Of a DNA stretch of 41,672 bases, positions 3,569 to 21,973 are shown one piece after another. The notes below the pieces were generated by a model, which searched no databases, had not been told where the DNA came from, and was given only the letters and a program-made list of their open reading frames with translations. How positions within the stretch are numbered: the stretch's first letter is position 1; every line of letters begins with the position of its first letter. Source of the DNA: a virus; the IMG/VR virus record IMGVR_UViG_3300029181_000008, positions 1-41,672 of that record; one strand, given 5' to 3'. A program made the translations under genes and the position numbers.

Positions 3569-3704
3569 AAAAGCATTTACTGGTGATCCCAAAGCAGAGG
3601 TTCAGAAGCTTCTTACCTCTGGGAAAATCAATCAGCAACAGCTCAATCAGTTGCAAGCAATGGCGCAACAGTTTCAAGGGTTGTTAAATAGCAATGGTAA
3701 GTAA
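3519..3704 (+). CDS. Small Gln-rich helical protein
   Basis: GGAGG RBS lies 7 nt before the ATG. 61 aa with QQFQQF, QQQLNQLQAMAQQFQ. Overlaps the previous gene by 50 nt out of frame. Confidence 0.6.
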   Translation: MQFQNPMQMIQQFQQFKKAFTGDPKAEVQKLLTSGKINQQQLNQLQAMAQQFQGLLNSNGK

Positions 3705-3757
3705 ATCACGCAAAATGCGTTGATTATACAAAAAAAACTCAGAAAGGAGAAAAATTT

Positions 3758-4612
3758 ATGAGTTTAACAAGTGAAAGTATGACTCCTGCCGATATCGCAG
3801 CCGTAACAGGTAATAACGGTAACGGAATGTGGGGTGATGGTGGTGCATGGTGGATCATCATTCTTTTCCTCTTCGTGTTCTGCGGTTGGGGAAACGGTAA
3901 CGGATGGGGAAACAACGGAGGTGCAGGCGCGGCTGATAACTACGTTTTAGCAAGCGATTTTGCAACCTTACAGCGACAGATCGACAGCTCTACAGCGTCA
4001 TTAGAGCGCAAATCCGATGCGATCAACAGTGGACTCTGTGATGGCTTTTACGCGATGAATACCACCGCTTTAAACGGCTTCTCAGGTGTCAACCAGAATC
4101 TTAGTAACGGCTTTGCACAGGCTGAATTGTCTCGTGCTAACGGACAGATGGGCTTAATGCAGCAGATGAACGCTAACAACATCACGGCTATGCAGAATGC
4201 CAACGCTTTGCAGTCTCAGCTTGCACAGTGCTGCTGCGATAACCGAGAGGCTATCTCTGGTGTGAACTACAACATGGCGATGAATACCAATGCCTTGCAG
4301 CACAGTGTAGAATCTGGATTCTGCCAGACGAACTACAACAACGCTTCCAATACGCGCGATATCATCGACAACCAGAACAGCAACGCAAGAGCGATCCTTG
4401 ATGCACTGAATGCACAGCAGATTGCGGCAAAAGATGCGAAGATTGCCGAGCAGAATCAGCAGATTTTTGGCTTGCAGCTTGCAGCATCTCAGCAGGCACA
4501 GAACAATTACTTAGTTCAGACACTTAAACCTGCACCAGTTCCGAGCTTTCCTGCTGGACAGCTCTACGGCTACATGGGTGGCTGCTGCAATCCGTGCAAT
4601 AGCTGTTCCTGA
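3758..4612 (+). CDS. Membrane-anchored Asn/Gln-rich, Cys-cluster protein
   Basis: AGGAG RBS. One TM helix (GAWWIIILFLFVFCGW) is flanked by a GNGNGWGNNGG tract. Has internal CCC (QCCCDN) and a C-terminal GGCCNPCNSCS. Confidence 0.7.
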   Translation: MSLTSESMTPADIAAVTGNNGNGMWGDGGAWWIIILFLFVFCGWGNGNGWGNNGGAGAADNYVLASDFATLQRQIDSSTASLERKSDAINSGLCDGFYAMNTTALNGFSGVNQNLSNGFAQAELSRANGQMGLMQQMNANNITAMQNANALQSQLAQCCCDNREAISGVNYNMAMNTNALQHSVESGFCQTNYNNASNTRDIIDNQNSNARAILDALNAQQIAAKDAKIAEQNQQIFGLQLAASQQAQNNYLVQTLKPAPVPSFPAGQLYGYMGGCCNPCNSCS

Positions 4613-7128: not shown

Positions 7129-8463
7129 TTAAACAAAGTACACCTTGTCGACTGAGTGACGCTTGATCTCGATTCTCCTCACAACTCTGTGCCAGAAATC
7201 TCGCTTTCCCTGCCTTGATAGCTGCTCGTAAATTTCCTTCCAGTTATCTGGCATCTGGCTGACTGGTAGCGCAGGTGCTGCCAAACTCTCAAGCTCCGCA
7301 AGCTGTGCTTTCAGCTCTTTTGTCTTTTCAAGATACTCAGCACGGCTCATATCACCATCAAGGTATATATCTTTCAGCCGTTCCAATCTCCCCTTGATCT
7401 TCTCAATTTTTCCCTCGGTGCTTTTTGCTTTCGCTGCAAGCTTCTGAACGCTTGCGTTATAATCTACAATCAATTCTTCCAGATGATCTATCATGTAGCT
7501 TTCCAAATTGTGTTCCATGATGAATGCAGCGTTTTTGCATTCTCCTCTCCGCACGGTTCTCATACGGCATTGATAGTATAGCTTTTCCTTTGGTTTGCCG
7601 TAGCTTGTATAGCAAGTGCACTTTGATCCCATCCTTGCACCACAGCTAGCGCAGAAGATTAACCCTGTAAAAATATATACTCTGTCTGCTTTTGGCTGTC
7701 TGGGATAATGCTGCCTTGCTTGCTGTATAAGCTCATGTTGTGCAGGTGTGATATATCCTGGCACTGATACACCATAGTAAGTGCCGTAGTACGGCTCTTT
7801 ATCAAGCAAAAAATGAGCGGTTTTCCGAGACATTTTCAAGCCCTTTTCGGCAGCTGCATCCATGGCTTGCACTGGGCTGTATGTGTTAAGATAGGTATCA
7901 AAAAAAGCTTGCATAGCTTCTTTTGTCTGAGGATCGAAGTCAATCGTAGATGCTGATGTGCGGATATATCCGAGTGGCATCTTACCTACTATGATATATC
8001 CCTGCGATTTGCGATACTCGTTAACCGCTCTGATACGCTCTGAGGTGCGGTCTGACTCAGCTTGGGCGATACTCAACATAATGTTGACTTTAAACACACC
8101 TGCGGACGTTTCCGTCTCGTAGTCCTCCCAGATAGCTCTCCATGGTACTTTTGCGGCATCAAGCTGACTCTGTACCTCATAGTAGTCCGCAACGGAGCGA
8201 AACCATCTATCGAGCTTTGTAAAAAGGATGATATCAATTTTGTGATCTTTGCAATCCTGTATAAGTTGTAGCAGCGCAGGACGTGCTTTGTACTTCTTTC
8301 TCGCACTAATGCCTGCATCGTTGTAGATGCCTGCGACTTCCAGACCGTTCTCGCGGCAGTACTTTTGCAGCGCATCAATCTGGCTATCTACTGATAAGCC
8401 GTGATCTCTTTGTTCTGCGGTTGATACGCGGACATATATAGCCGCCCTTTTCTTTCCTTCCAT
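7129..8463 (-). CDS. int: Large serine recombinase (phage integrase)
   Basis: N-terminal resolvase motif AAIYVRVSTAEQ, recombinase domain, Cys-rich zinc-ribbon segment (CASCGARMG...YYQC) and C-terminal coiled coil. 444 aa. Confidence 0.95.
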   Translation of the reverse strand: MEGKKRAAIYVRVSTAEQRDHGLSVDSQIDALQKYCRENGLEVAGIYNDAGISARKKYKARPALLQLIQDCKDHKIDIILFTKLDRWFRSVADYYEVQSQLDAAKVPWRAIWEDYETETSAGVFKVNIMLSIAQAESDRTSERIRAVNEYRKSQGYIIVGKMPLGYIRTSASTIDFDPQTKEAMQAFFDTYLNTYSPVQAMDAAAEKGLKMSRKTAHFLLDKEPYYGTYYGVSVPGYITPAQHELIQQARQHYPRQPKADRVYIFTGLIFCASCGARMGSKCTCYTSYGKPKEKLYYQCRMRTVRRGECKNAAFIMEHNLESYMIDHLEELIVDYNASVQKLAAKAKSTEGKIEKIKGRLERLKDIYLDGDMSRAEYLEKTKELKAQLAELESLAAPALPVSQMPDNWKEIYEQLSRQGKRDFWHRVVRRIEIKRHSVDKVYFV

Positions 8464-8496
8464 TTCCTTTTCTGTATCCTTTCTTACTGTGTCACG

Positions 8497-8518
8497 TTTA
8501 CATGATTAGTCATGTAAA
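8497..8518. promoter_or_regulatory. Perfect 22-bp palindrome TTTACATGA-TTAG-TCATGTAAA in the int / small-peptide intergenic region
   Basis: 9-bp perfect inverted arms with a 4-bp spacer. Lies 34 nt upstream of the int start codon, on the int leader side. Confidence 0.6.
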
Positions 8519-8596
8519 AAGTGTTAAAAAAAGTATTATATCGCTTTCCTCTTTGTGTTAGCATGAAAACATCTTTTTTTTAAGGAGGTGCATCAT

Positions 8597-8728
8597 ATGG
8601 ATAGAAAGGAGCTTATAAAAAAGATATCTAACCTGCTGCAAACCTTTGATCTTGTCACACTGTTAGCCATTTACCGCACGCTTAAACGCGTACAGAAAGG
8701 AGCCGTAAATGAAAAAGATGCTGATTAA
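8597..8728 (+). CDS. Small helical peptide, paralog 1 (43 aa)
   Basis: AAGGAGG RBS 8 nt upstream. MDRKELIKKISNLLQTFDLVTLLAIYRTLKRVQKGAVNEKDAD. Confidence 0.55.
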   Translation: MDRKELIKKISNLLQTFDLVTLLAIYRTLKRVQKGAVNEKDAD

Positions 8729-8804
8729 AAAGATAACCGATATGCTACAAACGCAAAGCGAAGATGTGTTGCTGTTGATCTACGAAATCTTGCTTAAGAT
8801 GTAG
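8709..8804 (+). CDS. Small helical peptide, paralog 2 (31 aa)
   Basis: AAAGGAG RBS. MKKMLIKKITDMLQTQSEDVLLLIYEILLKM, similar to paralog 1. Its 3' end overlaps the convergent repressor gene's 3' end by 11 nt. Confidence 0.5.
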   Translation: MKKMLIKKITDMLQTQSEDVLLLIYEILLKM

Positions 8805-9183
8805 CGTGTTTGAGTGCTTTGAGGTTGCCCAGTATGTCCCCGAAGATTTCTGCTTGATCTTCCGAGAGCTGCAAAACATACTGTACAGCCTCAATTGCAA
8901 CTTGATAGCGGCTTGATGTAGGATCAAGTTGCCTCAGTTGGCTTGCGATGTTGGAGATTTCCGCGCATGATGCAGCCTGCATTTCGCCTTTTCCAGTCCG
9001 CAACCACTCCTCTCTAATGCTGAATCTCTCGCAGATCAGCGTGATACTCTGCGTGCTTGGCTTGCTTTTTCCACTGCACATGTTAGATACTGCTGACTCC
9101 GAAATTTGCAAAGTTCGTGCCAGTCCTGCCTGTTTCATTCCCTTCATCTTCAATATCTGTAAAATTCTATCGCCGATTTCCAT
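8794..9183 (-). CDS. XRE-family repressor-like protein 1
   Basis: MEIGDRILQILKMKGMKQAGLARTLQISESAVSNMCSGKSKPS is an HTH_XRE pattern. Paralogous to 9562..9957 (shared REEWLRTGKGEM / NEAWLRTGEGEM). Confidence 0.85.
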   Translation of the reverse strand: MEIGDRILQILKMKGMKQAGLARTLQISESAVSNMCSGKSKPSTQSITLICERFSIREEWLRTGKGEMQAASCAEISNIASQLRQLDPTSSRYQVAIEAVQYVLQLSEDQAEIFGDILGNLKALKHATS

Positions 9184-9206
9184 TTTTTCACATCCCTTCT
9201 CCTCTT

Positions 9207-9235
9207 ATTATATCACATTCCCTTTTGAAAGTAAA
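9207..9235 (-). promoter_or_regulatory. Promoter of repressor-like gene 1
   Basis: On the minus strand: TTTACT, 17 nt, TGaTATAAT. Confidence 0.55.
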
Positions 9236-9267
9236 TAGACAACTTATATAGATTAAGGAAAAGACTA

Positions 9268-9412
9268 ATAAAAAAAGGAAACCAGAACAATCTGGCTTCC
9301 TAAATGCGGGGAATTATTGAGTTCTTTTCACACAACGCCCCTCGTGCCGAAAGGAAGCACGAAGGGCAGACAGAAAGGATAAAGGTACTTGCCTTTTGTG
9401 GTTATCCCACAT
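9268..9412 (-). ncRNA. Candidate small RNA of about 145 nt with its own promoter and terminator
   Basis: Bounded by the promoter at 9420-9448 and the terminator at 9276-9301. Has a central 11-bp GC-rich hairpin (gcccttcgtgc/gcacgaggggc) with a CU-rich loop. No RBS-preceded ORF. Confidence 0.5.
9276..9301 (-). terminator. Rho-independent terminator of the sRNA candidate
   Basis: Minus-strand RNA forms aggaagccaga-uugu-ucugguuuccu followed by U7. Confidence 0.75.
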
Positions 9413-9419
9413 AGAGAAA

Positions 9420-9448
9420 AGTATAAAAGATGTATGAACCCTTTACAA
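9420..9448 (-). promoter_or_regulatory. Sigma-A-type promoter driving the sRNA candidate
   Basis: On the minus strand: TTGTAA (9443-9448), 17-nt spacer, TATACT (9420-9425). Confidence 0.55.
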
Positions 9449-9477
9449 CCCTAACTATAAGTGCGATGAAAAAAAAA

Positions 9478-9503
9478 AGCAAGGACTTTTTTGAGTCCCT
9501 GCT
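9478..9503 (-). terminator. Terminator of repressor gene 2
   Basis: Minus-strand RNA forms agcagggac / guccuugcu (one G-U pair) followed by U8. Lies 59 nt past the stop codon. Confidence 0.7.
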
Positions 9504-9561
9504 TTCTTTTTTTACCCTTTTTACTGGGTGCGGTAATATGCTGCGGAAATGCAGCGTTTTT

Positions 9562-9957
9562 TTACTTTTCCCCCTTACTGATCGCAGCATTAAGCTTGCG
9601 GATCATGTCCAATACAGCTTGCATTTGGGTTTCATCCAGCTGCAAAAGAGTTTTGTTTAATGCAACTAAAAAGTTGTATGTCTCTGGGTCAGTTTCTTCC
9701 TTGCGGAAAAGCTGTGCTGTGATAGCTGCTATTTCGGATTGCTTAGTCATCGGGGCTTTCATCTCCCCTTCGCCAGTGCGTAGCCAAGCCTCGTTGATTT
9801 GAAATTCTCGACATATAGCAGAAATGATAGCATTTGAAGGTTTCCGTGAATTAGATTCATAATTAGTGATCGTATTACCTCGTACACCCAATTTTTCTCC
9901 GAATTCATTTTGTGTAAGCCCCAGTGACTTTCTTACCTCTTTGATTCTTTCATTCAT
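9562..9957 (-). CDS. XRE-family CI-like repressor 2 (adjacent to the divergent early promoter)
   Basis: MNERIKEVRKSLGLTQNEFGEKLGVRGNTITNYESNSRKPS. There is no S24 peptidase domain. Confidence 0.88.
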   Translation of the reverse strand: MNERIKEVRKSLGLTQNEFGEKLGVRGNTITNYESNSRKPSNAIISAICREFQINEAWLRTGEGEMKAPMTKQSEIAAITAQLFRKEETDPETYNFLVALNKTLLQLDETQMQAVLDMIRKLNAAISKGEK

Positions 9958-9983
9958 TAGTATGATACCTCCTTTCCGATTTT

Positions 9984-10012
9984 AGAATATCACAAAAAAC
10001 TCACATAGTCAA
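9984..10012 (-). promoter_or_regulatory. Promoter of repressor 2 (PRM-like)
   Basis: On the minus strand: TTGACT (10007-10012), 17 nt, TGaTATTCT (-10 at 9984-9989). Confidence 0.6.
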
Positions 10013-10031
10013 TATTTTTTCTAAAAACCTG

Positions 10032-10060
10032 TTGACATTAAACTCACAATGTGATATATT
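10032..10060 (+). promoter_or_regulatory. Early lytic promoter
   Basis: TTGACA (10032-10037), 17-nt spacer, TGaTATATT (-10 at 10055-10060). Confidence 0.7.
10044..10054. promoter_or_regulatory. Operator candidate: 11-bp palindrome TCACAATGTGA within the early promoter spacer
   Basis: Perfect dyad. TCACA(T/A) half-sites recur at 9188, 9213, 9990 and 10001. The same 11-mer recurs at 20217-20227. Confidence 0.5.
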
Positions 10061-10105
10061 ATAGTCACAGAGCAAGGAAAGCTCAACAGAAAGGAAGGAA
10101 ACAAA

Positions 10106-11824
10106 ATGGCAATCGCAAATTACAAGAGCTTTATTACAAGATTAGGAAAAATGATCTGCAAGAACTTCACAGATAGTGAGTTCGTCAAAACAGAATTTGA
10201 TGATGAATTTAATTCTAACACAGCTTATTTTACTATCAACGGATATTCTGCATGGGCATGTATCTATGATGATGATGATGTCATTACCGTATATGTTGCT
10301 GGCACACACACAGTCGAAATCAAAATTGACGGTACGCAGAAAGATGCTATGGCAACAGCCGTTCGTAGAATCGAAAGCCTATTAGATGAAGCAGAAATTA
10401 AAAAAGCAGAGATAGATAAAAAGGCTGAGGAAGAAGTGAATGCAGATAAGCAGGACAAGCAGGAAGCAGCAGAGAAGGAAACAGCAAAGCAGTACTTTGT
10501 AGTAAATTACGAGAAAGACGGTATTTTTCATGCAAACATTGCAAGCGCAGAAAAGAAGTCTGACGTAGAAGCGAAGTATAGCGAATATGATGCATTTGCC
10601 GTAGTCGAAGCAAACGATTATATAGTGAAAGAAGCAAAGATTAAGCACATGCCGATTATCGAGGTTGAGCCAGTAAAGCAGGAAGGAAGAAATAAAATGG
10701 AAAGTGTTAAACCATTGTCCATAAAAGTAGAGAGAGCAATCAGCAAGATGGCATTAGGTGATTGCACATTAACAGGAGTAACAGAGTTAAGTGATTATTG
10801 CCATGATATCTATGTAACTATTGAAACTGGCAAAGACAGGTATGAACTCAAAGTTATTCTCAAGCGCAATATTGATGGAGTTACAACCATTGCTATTGTT
10901 GAGGATGGAGCCGATGAAGCAACACATGTTTTTACAGATAAGGGTTGCAAGAGCCTTGATGCTATCGCTTACCACACGAAGATGCTTGTTGACGGAATGT
11001 ATGCACAGAGAATGTTCGATATGTCATGTGAGATAACCGACCCAGAGTATTTTGAAGAACATAAGAATGATGTAGAGGAAGAGGAGCAAGTTGAAGAAAA
11101 GGAGCAGGAAATTATCGTAGAAGAGGAAGACGAGAACGAAGTTATGTTAAATGTTATTAGATTTCATCTTGAAAGCAGTATGAAGAGATGGTACGAGGAT
11201 GTAGAACTTTACTACGGTATCAGCGGAAGATTCCTTGATTGCAAGGCTGAGGGTGACAACCTCTTGATTTTCTATGAAGAGAAAGGAAAGAAGTACATTA
11301 CCAGAATCTGTTCCTACAAGGACTATACACCAGAACAGATTTACAACATCTGGATGGAAGCTGACGGATGTGAAATGAGATCGGAAGAGATCGAGAGATT
11401 TTTTCCGCAGGAAGTAGAAGAGCCGCAACCGACACCAGAGGAAGCCGACAGAGAAGTAACGTATATCGACTTCAAGCCAGAGCAGGACTACAGCGAAGAA
11501 GAACAGAAAGAGATTGCTGAGACGGTTACAGGTGTAGGGCTTGAGCTACTTGAAAAGGAGCTTACAGAGCTTGAGAAGTTGGAAGAGGAAAGCGACAAAG
11601 CGGATGACGCATGGGACAAAGATCCATTGAACGCAGAGCTTGAAGTGGCAAGTAGTAAGGCATACGAGAAAGAGTGGAAAAAGTACATGGACTCAGCCAA
11701 AACGCTTGCAAGGCTTATCAACATGGACACGAAAACAGCAAAACAGATGTTGCAGAGAGGTAGCAAGAACCGTGAGAAGGTATGGAACTACTTGAAGCGC
11801 ATGAAAGTGTATGAAAACAAATAA
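10106..11824 (+). CDS. Large, highly acidic early protein of unknown function
   Basis: 572 aa and the first gene after the early promoter. Long Glu/Asp tracts (EEEEQVEEKEQEIIVEEEDENE; EEPQPTPEEADRE). Confidence 0.8.
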   Translation: MAIANYKSFITRLGKMICKNFTDSEFVKTEFDDEFNSNTAYFTINGYSAWACIYDDDDVITVYVAGTHTVEIKIDGTQKDAMATAVRRIESLLDEAEIKKAEIDKKAEEEVNADKQDKQEAAEKETAKQYFVVNYEKDGIFHANIASAEKKSDVEAKYSEYDAFAVVEANDYIVKEAKIKHMPIIEVEPVKQEGRNKMESVKPLSIKVERAISKMALGDCTLTGVTELSDYCHDIYVTIETGKDRYELKVILKRNIDGVTTIAIVEDGADEATHVFTDKGCKSLDAIAYHTKMLVDGMYAQRMFDMSCEITDPEYFEEHKNDVEEEEQVEEKEQEIIVEEEDENEVMLNVIRFHLESSMKRWYEDVELYYGISGRFLDCKAEGDNLLIFYEEKGKKYITRICSYKDYTPEQIYNIWMEADGCEMRSEEIERFFPQEVEEPQPTPEEADREVTYIDFKPEQDYSEEEQKEIAETVTGVGLELLEKELTELEKLEEESDKADDAWDKDPLNAELEVASSKAYEKEWKKYMDSAKTLARLINMDTKTAKQMLQRGSKNREKVWNYLKRMKVYENK

Positions 11825-12041: not shown

Positions 12042-12243
12042 GTACGAGGTATGTTTTTATATAGATTGGCAATTGGTAGCAGGCTGCATCATTGAAACCT
12101 ATGACAAGGATAGTGCAGAAAAACTAGCAACTGCCAAATTGCAAGACGAAATCAAAGAAATAGAAAATGCACTGAATGCAAAGGTTAACCGAACTTTTGT
12201 ATCACAGTTGCCAGATAATCAACACAGAAAGGAAAGACAATGA
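12028..12243 (+). CDS. Hypothetical small protein
   Basis: 71-aa ORF with GGAGGA immediately before the ATG. Overlaps both neighbours. Confidence 0.55.
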   Translation: MWVHKYEVCFYIDWQLVAGCIIETYDKDSAEKLATAKLQDEIKEIENALNAKVNRTFVSQLPDNQHRKERQ

Positions 12244-21375: not shown

Positions 21376-21638
21376 TGAAAGATATTAGAGCCAAGGCAGA
21401 GGAGTGGAACGCAGGATCAACGAAAAAAGTGCCGTATGAGTTTGTTGAGTTCTGTGAGGGCAAGAGAAGCATTGATGCAAGCAAGAAGTATTGCACATGG
21501 GAACATTACTCTCATATAAGCTTGGAATCTGTAAATACAGCTTGCGGAAAAGATACCGCATTTGCAAATATTAGAACGTTAGAAAAGTATGATTTTTGCC
21601 CATACTGTGGGAAGAAAATCAAATTATTGGCAAAATGA
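21375..21638 (+). CDS. Hypothetical protein with a C-terminal zinc knuckle
   Basis: CPYCGKK. TGATG overlap with the upstream gene. Confidence 0.55.
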   Translation: MKDIRAKAEEWNAGSTKKVPYEFVEFCEGKRSIDASKKYCTWEHYSHISLESVNTACGKDTAFANIRTLEKYDFCPYCGKKIKLLAK

Positions 21639-21973
21639 AATTTGAGAAAATCAAAATAGAGACCTACTACAGATGCCCGATTTGTGGAGAAAATTCTACT
21701 AATCGAGCAAAAATAGAAATGCATTTTCGCGAAGCTCATCAAGTTAGAGTTGACAAATTTGTTTGCTGCGGCATTTGTGGAGAGGGTTGGAACACAAAAA
21801 GATTCGGTGAAGAAGGAGCTAGAAAATTAGCGGAGCAGCACTACCAAAGTCACATTGATGATGGTAGTGCAGATGCTACAGCCAGAAGTGCTTATTTTCT
21901 TTCACATGGCTATTGGGGCTATGCGAAAAGTATAAAAGGAGGGCGTGAGGATGGAGAAGGTGAAAAAGATTAA
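21635..21973 (+). CDS. Zinc-finger protein
   Basis: CPICGE...H..AH plus CCGICGE. ATGA overlap. Internal ATG of ORF 21596..21973. Confidence 0.6.
   Translation: MKFEKIKIETYYRCPICGENSTNRAKIEMHFREAHQVRVDKFVCCGICGEGWNTKRFGEEGARKLAEQHYQSHIDDGSADATARSAYFLSHGYWGYAKSIKGGREDGEGEKD

Follow-up and report, generated by a model that had tools for sequence, protein, structure and literature searches.

The c4 RNA of phages P1 and P7 and the CI RNA of P4 are immunity RNAs that lysogens produce. Acting in trans by way of brief stretches of complementarity, one of which covers a ribosome-binding site (RBS), they silence a lytic or anti-immunity function (PMC12197685). In P22, the small RNA Sar is encoded in a second immunity region, immI, together with a second repressor, and pairs with an RBS to block translation initiation (PMC12197685). 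DicF of the Qin prophage, svsR, 24B_1 and StxS are terminator-ended prophage small RNAs (sRNAs) that pair with translation-initiation regions (PMC12197685). These four act mainly on host genes or originate in lytic-strand operons, and all belong to Proteobacteria. The c4 RNA derives by processing from the operon that also encodes its target, release from a longer precursor by RNase P being a hallmark of the c4/CI family, and Sar is a cis-antisense RNA that is fully complementary to its target. In Firmicutes, RsaE/RoxS and the hairpins of RNAIII present pyrimidine-rich motifs that are unpaired or exposed in loops, often in two redundant copies, and pair with G-rich Shine-Dalgarno (SD) sequences. 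To our knowledge, the known RNA regulators of phage lysogeny (c4, CI, Sar, OOP and 24B_1) all belong to phages of Proteobacteria. The term 'Gram-positive' is absent from the text of a 2025 review of phage-derived sRNAs (PMC12197685).

Here we describe a conserved, structured and non-coding element that lies between the two repressor genes of a gut phage and is most likely an sRNA gene. Functionally, P1/P7 c4, P4 CI and P22 Sar would be its closest counterparts, and it appears to belong to none of these classes. Like the element, c4 is proposed to act through complementary motifs exposed by its fold; however, the covariance model of the c4/CI family (Rfam C4, RF01695) does not match the element (cmscan at E <= 10 over positions 8000-11000, and at the gathering score over the whole window), which offers one 10-11-nt seed towards SD boxes and a loop motif that is reduced to 6 nt of complementarity in half the variants. 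In contrast to c4, the element ends in a terminator of its own and is encoded on the strand opposite to that of its proposed targets, and the hosts of c4/CI are enterobacteria, whereas that of the element is probably a Gram-positive gut anaerobe. Compared with Sar, its complementarity is limited to 10-11 nt and its nearest candidate target is about 700 nt away. The candidate targets at 10086, 12224 and 8692 are all distant and share 10 nt with the element, unlike those of cis-antisense RNAs of the P22 Sar or lambda OOP type, and no conserved ORF or RBS is found opposite the element. None of DicF, svsR, 24B_1 and StxS matches it in sequence or structure. RsaE/RoxS and RNAIII are chromosomal, metabolic regulators without an Rfam match to the element, and use CCCC where the element has CCUUUC. 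In every testable respect apart from a demonstrated promoter, the element fits the general description of a terminator-ended, trans-acting sRNA: it has a Rho-independent terminator at its 3' end, no conserved coding potential, and a conserved, accessible seed with conserved complementary sites, the specificity of which is modest. We regard it as a probable new phage sRNA.

The window, that is, the whole stretch of DNA analysed, comprises 41,672 nt (IMG/VR record IMGVR_UViG_3300029181_000008) and is a temperate phage genome. Many metagenome assemblies contain exact copies of its repressor 1 gene, on contigs that measure about 41-42 kb and never exceed 50 kb, so that the window is probably a complete phage genome. 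Contigs with an identical repressor 1 recur across many human-gut runs, and the nearest relatives of its integrase (43-49% identity) are encoded by Lachnospira, Anaerovibrio and Oscillospiraceae MAGs. The element occupies the 378-nt gap between the genes for repressors 1 and 2 (Table 1), and beyond repressor 2 lie a strong, divergent plus-strand promoter and the first early gene. A palindrome, TCACAATGTGA, overlaps this early promoter at 10044-10054, and AACTCACA recurs about 40 nt upstream; both are probably operators of repressor 2. The first early protein itself is strongly mosaic, with at least four unrelated N-terminal modules and lengths of 257-589 aa in the window and four relatives (L004, L009, L010 and L015), and an acidic segment, PTPEEADREVTYIDFKPEQDYSE, is common to its variants. 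Searches of PHROGs gave no function for the early genes, and for the first early protein only two marginal matches (E about 0.004-0.008), to families of unknown function.

Table 1. Features of the immunity region and candidate target sites (window coordinates; SD, Shine-Dalgarno sequence)
Feature	Position	Strand	Remarks
Serine integrase	7129-8463	minus	
Third copy of the 10-nt box	8692-8701	plus	RBS of small ORF 8709-8804; first base varies in relatives
Repressor 1	8794-9183	minus	HTH regulator
Repressor 1 promoter, TTTACT-17-TATAAT with upstream TG	9235-9207	minus	downstream of terminator H3; conserved
RNA element	9452-9269	minus	lysogeny strand, between the repressor genes
H3, intrinsic terminator	9269-9301	minus	11-bp stem (9301-9276), 4-nt loop, then U7
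Linker from H2 to terminator	9302-9336	minus	variable in alignments
ORF, 36 aa	9304-9414	plus	no SD
ORF, 32 aa	9412-9314	minus	only ORF on the RNA strand; no SD
H2, GC-rich hairpin	9337-9367	minus	12 bp, UCCUUUC loop; fold prediction and RNAalifold
Unpaired 21-mer AGUACCUUUAUCCUUUCUGUC	9369-9389	minus	unpaired in MFE and centroid structures; candidate anti-SD seed
UCCUUUCUGU within the seed	9379-9370	minus	exact complement of ACAGAAAGGA
H1, small hairpin UGUGG-GAUAA-CCACA	9397-9411	minus	fold prediction
H0, predicted 5' hairpin	9417-9451	minus	14 pairs, G.U-rich; RNAalifold
Earlier-proposed promoter TTGTAA-17-TATACT	9420-9448	minus	9/12 in promoter scan; within predicted H0
Candidate -10, TATAGT	9454-9459	minus	17 nt after TTGCTT; invariant in all 23 variants
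Repressor-2 terminator	9468-9503	minus	invariant in all loci
Candidate -35, TTGCTT	9477-9482	minus	overlaps 3' arm of repressor-2 terminator; invariant in all aligned loci
Plus-strand-only terminator	9538-9564	plus	hairpin + T7; abuts repressor-2 stop codon
Repressor 2	9562-9957	minus	
SD box of first early gene, ACAGAAAGGA(AG)	10086-10097	plus	proposed target; 10-nt ACAGAAAGGA at 10086-10095; ATG at 10106
First early gene	10106-11824	plus	
Second copy of the 10-nt box	12224-12233	plus	RBS of gene 12240; precedes two alternative genes in relatives

The element has been found in about 33 loci on about 30 contigs, recovered by searches with the repressor proteins and with DNA patterns from 17 IMG/VR contigs, 16 metagenome contigs and 5 Logan contigs, many of them sampled more than once. 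Together they represent 23 sequence variants, mostly from human-gut metagenomes, and the metagenome contigs that name a source in their title all name the human gut. Two stretches of public metagenome contigs, L159:880-900 and L161:1-40, were left out of the alignments as assembly artefacts; here a sequencing adapter (AGATCGGAAGAGCACACGTC, or CTGTCTCTTATACACATCT in reverse) is fused to phage DNA. No match to the intergenic region was obtained by BLASTN against GenBank phages, an invariant 20-mer is absent from the GTDB species-representative genomes, and searches with a covariance model built on the core were negative both for 63 loci whose repressor homologues are more distant and for the surroundings of the integrase relatives in Lachnospira and Oscillospiraceae MAGs. 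The element thus appears confined to one shallow clade of gut Clostridia phages, and since all homologues belong to this clade, the conservation counts given below are not independent.

Within this clade, the element forms a conserved island that is better preserved than either of the flanking repressor genes. Its core is 77-100% identical, the lowest value being due to a 14-nt deletion, whereas identity falls to 55% for repressor-1 DNA and to 66-78% for repressor-2 DNA, and to 32-36% for the repressor-1 protein. Repressor 1 occurs in three types, and repressor 2 with its operators in four unrelated types (loci L001-L017); the two genes have been exchanged independently among relatives, together with matching promoter/operator regions, in what looks like a two-repressor mosaic immunity system. 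In some relatives (L004, at 3680-3800, L014, L150, L151, L153 and L154), about 105 additional nt are inserted between the terminator of the RNA and the repressor-1 promoter. This insert has its own extended -10 element (TGTGATATAAT) and a hairpin resembling a terminator, and may contain a small hydrophobic ORF (MRQTFWFMSFYGIELAARCFFLVFF...), with an in-frame 9-nt indel in L153; it could encode a second small RNA or a small membrane peptide.

The predicted fold is considerably more stable than expected from composition: the 148 nt from 9415 to 9268 fold at -55.6 kcal/mol (z = -6.1 against dinucleotide shuffles) and the 185 nt from 9452 to 9268 at -64 kcal/mol (z = -5.5), while the plus strand folds 11 kcal/mol worse than the minus strand. 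On an RNAalifold consensus of 15 distinct long variants, scored on the same alignment from which it was derived, 98.5% of the cells are paired, with 134 G.U cells as against 6 A.C cells on the minus strand. Changes on both sides of a pair are seen at four pairs, one in H1 and three in H3, the latter as compensatory double changes such as GGGGGUCAGA/UCUGAUCCCC in L004/L014. The asymmetry between G.U and A.C cells, along with the compensatory pairs of the terminator, assigns the RNA to the minus strand. Given how similar the sequences are, and that the family could not be widened, there is little covariation. H2 and H3 are well supported as predicted helices, H1 is moderately supported and H0 is tentative. 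The 11-bp GC-rich hairpin of an initial sequence-only reading corresponds to H2 at 9367-9337, which has 12 pairs when two U.G pairs next to the loop are counted; U.G and C-G alternate among variants, and the closing pair is G-C, G.U or A-U. The closing pair of H1 varies in the same way (G-C, G.U or A-U). In H0, all three variable pairs remain paired (G.U/G-C or G.U/A-U; 100% of cells), which is weak evidence, as these changes are one-sided only.

The strong terminator that had been placed at the end of the RNA is borne out by H3 (11 pairs, 4-nt loop and T7 at 9301-9269). In a short form of the element (L010, L015, L017 and L149) the linker before H3 is absent and H2 is directly followed by UUUUCU, so H2 probably serves as the terminator; hence, both the long and the short architecture end in a hairpin and a U-run on the minus strand. 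The linker is replaced in L008/L011, and H1 is deleted in the shortest variants, L015 and L017. A CsrA-type reading of the plus strand, with GGA in a hairpin loop and a further GGA downstream, was rejected, as the G.U pattern and both terminator types fit the minus strand only. The Rfam searches described above yielded nothing beyond sub-threshold noise, mostly on terminators, and ARAGORN found no tRNA or tmRNA.

The element also lacks conserved coding potential. As the sequence-only reading had noted, it contains no RBS-preceded ORF: in L010-type variants a stop codon cuts the 32-aa ORF of the RNA strand to 6 codons, other variants have it frame-shifted, and the region of the 36-aa plus-strand ORF is deleted in the short variants. 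That the locus encodes a small protein from either ORF is extremely improbable on these grounds and because neither has an SD, even though the ATG at 9412 lies 8 nt after TATACT, a spacing that would suit a leaderless mRNA; both small-protein readings were rejected. A small hydrophobic toxin ORF, as in type I toxin-antitoxin systems, is absent from 9184-9561 of the window. The only hydrophobic small ORF was seen in the extra insert of the L004-type relatives.

Where transcription of the element begins is less clear-cut. The promoter proposed from sequence alone, TTGTAA-17-TATACT, has its hexamers in place (9448-9443 and 9425-9420), but sites of this quality occur at about chance frequency (12 sites matching 9/12 were found in 4 kb, with 8.5 expected), and in about half of the variants it is degraded: the -10 reads TATACC, TACACC or TACAAC and the -35 reads CTGTAA, each in 11/22 variants. 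The T-to-C changes in TATACT amount to G.U-to-G-C changes within H0. By comparison, TTGCTT-17-TATAGT, located just upstream, is invariant and appears to suit the promoter role better, although TTGCTT has only 3/6 matches to the -35 consensus and neither candidate is strong (8/12 and 9/12 matches for the two). If this is the promoter, transcription would start near 9449-9446 and yield an RNA of about 180 nt with a 5'-terminal hairpin. The length of about 145 nt given previously, which would follow from the TATACT start, is not supported either. What stands of the sRNA reading is a discrete, terminator-ended, non-coding and structured element on the lysogeny strand, without the promoter and the length originally attached to it.

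With both candidate promoters weak and the element lying directly between two genes of the same strand, it could be argued that it is not an independent gene, and instead is a processed or read-through 3' part of the repressor 2 transcript, or belongs to repressor 1 as its 5' leader or as an attenuator. We consider this very unlikely. Read-through from repressor 2 would have to pass its strong and invariant terminator, which consists of a 10-bp hairpin (9503-9478) and a run of 10 U (9478-9469) that begins within the 3' arm. A leader, attenuator or riboswitch of repressor 1 is unlikely since the strong, conserved, extended -10 promoter of repressor 1, which had already been recognized as separate and is confirmed at 9235-9207, lies downstream of H3; moreover, no Rfam cis-regulatory family matches the element at threshold. 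The element has also stayed constant while both its neighbours were exchanged, which argues further against its being part of either.

The most conserved part of the RNA is predicted to lie outside the helices. The longest invariant run in the alignments is the 21-mer AGUACCUUUAUCCUUUCUGUC (9389-9369), predicted to be unpaired, the 20-nt core of which (9388-9369) is identical in all related loci, and the second longest, CCUUUCGGCACGAGGGG, comprises the H2 loop core, CCUUUCGG, and the 3' arm; hairpin loops and linkers vary. The 21-mer is predicted to be accessible, with an opening cost of 0.4-0.9 kcal/mol, and an invariant, accessible segment of this kind is the pattern that would be expected of the seed of a trans-acting sRNA. 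The CU-rich motifs of the RNA had been reported to be complementary to the SD region of the first early gene, and this is exact for both pairs, UCCUUUCUGU/ACAGAAAGGA in the seed and CUUCCUUUC/GAAAGGAAG in the H2 loop. GAAAGGAAG is located at 10089-10097, 9 nt before the ATG at 10106. The loop motif, however, cannot be upheld as a specific partner, as half of the variants have UUUACCUUUC in the loop and a complementarity of 6 nt to the same target sequence. Seed and loop could not pair simultaneously, because ACAGAAAGGA and GAAAGGAAG overlap on the mRNA.

Several observations connect the seed with early lytic genes. ACAGAAAGGA occurs four times in the window, with 0.18 occurrences expected, always on the plus strand; three copies are at RBSs (of 10106, 12240 and 8709), while the remaining one is simply the seed read in antisense. 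The box of the early gene has been kept across four unrelated promoter/operator (immunity) modules and at least four N-terminal coding modules. Where the RNA is present, 35-44% of the AGAAAGGA sites are preceded by AC, as compared to 6% in related loci without it. The 10-bp duplex between seed and box has a predicted energy of -13.3 kcal/mol, and opening the targets costs 0.06-0.8 kcal/mol (0.8 for the early gene). For the 10-nt match to the 42-nt leader of the early gene, dinucleotide-shuffled RNAs give P = 0.03, which is suggestive, not compelling. In a segment-wise, accessibility-corrected interaction scan of both strands of the window, the top-ranked predicted interactions all involve the seed, and of the five best sites four are regions of translation initiation. 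With -13.7 kcal/mol, the same predicted energy as for gene 12240, the site of the early gene comes 4th-5th, behind 26884, which is in coding sequence, and 36598 and 19592, both of which are RBSs; the energies form a continuum. A 14-nt perfect complement of the 3' arm of H0 (CUUUUAUACUUUUC) lies at 21925-21938 on the plus strand, inside the 3' end of ORF 21596-21973. It was rejected as a target, as it is not at a real start and probably arose by chance (rough expectation about 0.06-0.15).

The complementarity needs to be read with care. The sequence-only reading had itself cautioned that complementarity to SD sequences is weak evidence, and this caveat proved justified: several other sites equal or surpass the early gene in score, AGAAAGGA is in itself a strong extended Shine-Dalgarno sequence of generic type, and many unrelated viral contigs without the RNA use the box with a CTTS prefix as an RBS. 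The seed core UCCUUUCU matches the 3' tail of Firmicute 16S rRNA, and owing to this resemblance the complementarity of the seed to AGAAAGGA is partly generic. The RNA might hence be a genuine phage sRNA with its main targets elsewhere, namely host mRNAs, the small plus-strand ORFs and the integrase beyond repressor 1, or strong SDs in general. The many sites of similar score in the window, among them the RBS of the integrase (-12.4) and the regions where the two small ORFs start (-11.6 and -11.4), fit this possibility, as does the full box that immediately follows the start codon of the first of these ORFs in L017 and L081. It nevertheless seems somewhat unlikely, given that the best-conserved 10-nt boxes are those of the early gene and gene 12240, and that the box of ORF 8709 loses its first base freely. 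That base is a synonymous wobble position (GTA/GTC/GTT), so only 9 nt are constrained there. Compensatory changes between RNA and target are not seen, since both sides are invariant. Overall, the early gene is a plausible but unproven target.

The small ORFs (8597-8728, 43 aa; 8709-8804, 31 aa) are overlapping paralogues on the plus strand, convergent with the 3' end of repressor 1. They are kept in relatives, where most changes are synonymous, and nothing in PHROGs matches them; lying beside the integrase, they may function in excision or as anti-repressors. The sequence TTTACATGA-TTAG-TCATGTAAA (8497-8518), a perfect palindrome, is situated between the integrase start and these ORFs, downstream of a minus-strand TATAAT, and is likely an operator for the integrase or the small ORFs.

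Probable plus-strand transcription of this region suggests a further alternative, in which the element has no role in trans. It would then be a cis-acting insulator and antisense module, made up of stacked terminators and hairpins, that separates the repressor-2 and repressor-1 units, its transcript being the perfect antisense partner of plus-strand read-through from the side of the small ORFs or an agent of transcriptional interference, and its conservation would reflect module exchange that recombines at the element; we judge the cis or antisense role unlikely, and this account of the conservation equally so. The repressor-2 terminator is bidirectional, as a T-rich run (TTCTTTTTTT) flanks its hairpin on the plus strand, and together with the plus-strand-only terminator, which six relatives lack by deletion, it places terminators able to act on the plus strand just past the element (9478-9503 and 9538-9557). 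A terminator scan found none between 8287 and 9483, so plus-strand transcription probably runs antisense across both repressor 1 and the RNA gene. The mosaic breakpoints on both flanks of the element and the indels directly after H2 and H3 are likewise in keeping with a module of this kind. A spacer, however, fails to account for the greatest invariance being found in the unpaired 21-mer, with variable loops and linkers around it, or for the strand-specific G.U pattern of four helices, and the promoter scan found no plus-strand promoter for the small ORFs.

Hence, we tentatively favour, as the best single hypothesis, an anti-SD mechanism aimed at early lytic genes. The minus-strand, non-coding RNA would be made in the lysogen together with the two repressors, and would consist of one or more 5' hairpins, the unpaired CU-rich seed AGUACCUUUAUCCUUUCUGUC, the GC-rich hairpin with its CCUUUCGG loop and the intrinsic terminator. 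The seed may pair with the extended SD box ACAGAAAGGA of lytic-strand mRNAs, chiefly those of the first early gene and gene 12240, and block binding of the 30S subunit, which would place a post-transcriptional lock on leaky early transcripts. As the seed and the SD box of the early gene stay constant while repressors and operators are swapped, cross-immunity is conceivable. In this wider scheme, which we consider quite unlikely, the RNA would be an immunity-type-independent lock in heteroimmune gut phages: RNA from a resident prophage would shut off early translation in superinfecting relatives that escape recognition by the protein repressor of the prophage, and upon induction plus-strand read-through, as a perfect complement of the RNA, would act as a sponge and release the lock.

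The anti-SD hypothesis can easily be put to the test, as it involves a seed and a target box that are both short and clearly delimited; for instance, the seed could be changed from UCCUUUCUGU to UCGAAUCUGU. If validated, the element would represent a lysogeny-strand riboregulator in temperate phages of human-gut Clostridia, located between two exchangeable repressor modules and conserved independently of both, and would bear on how these abundant prophages are kept silent and on mutual exclusion among related phages.
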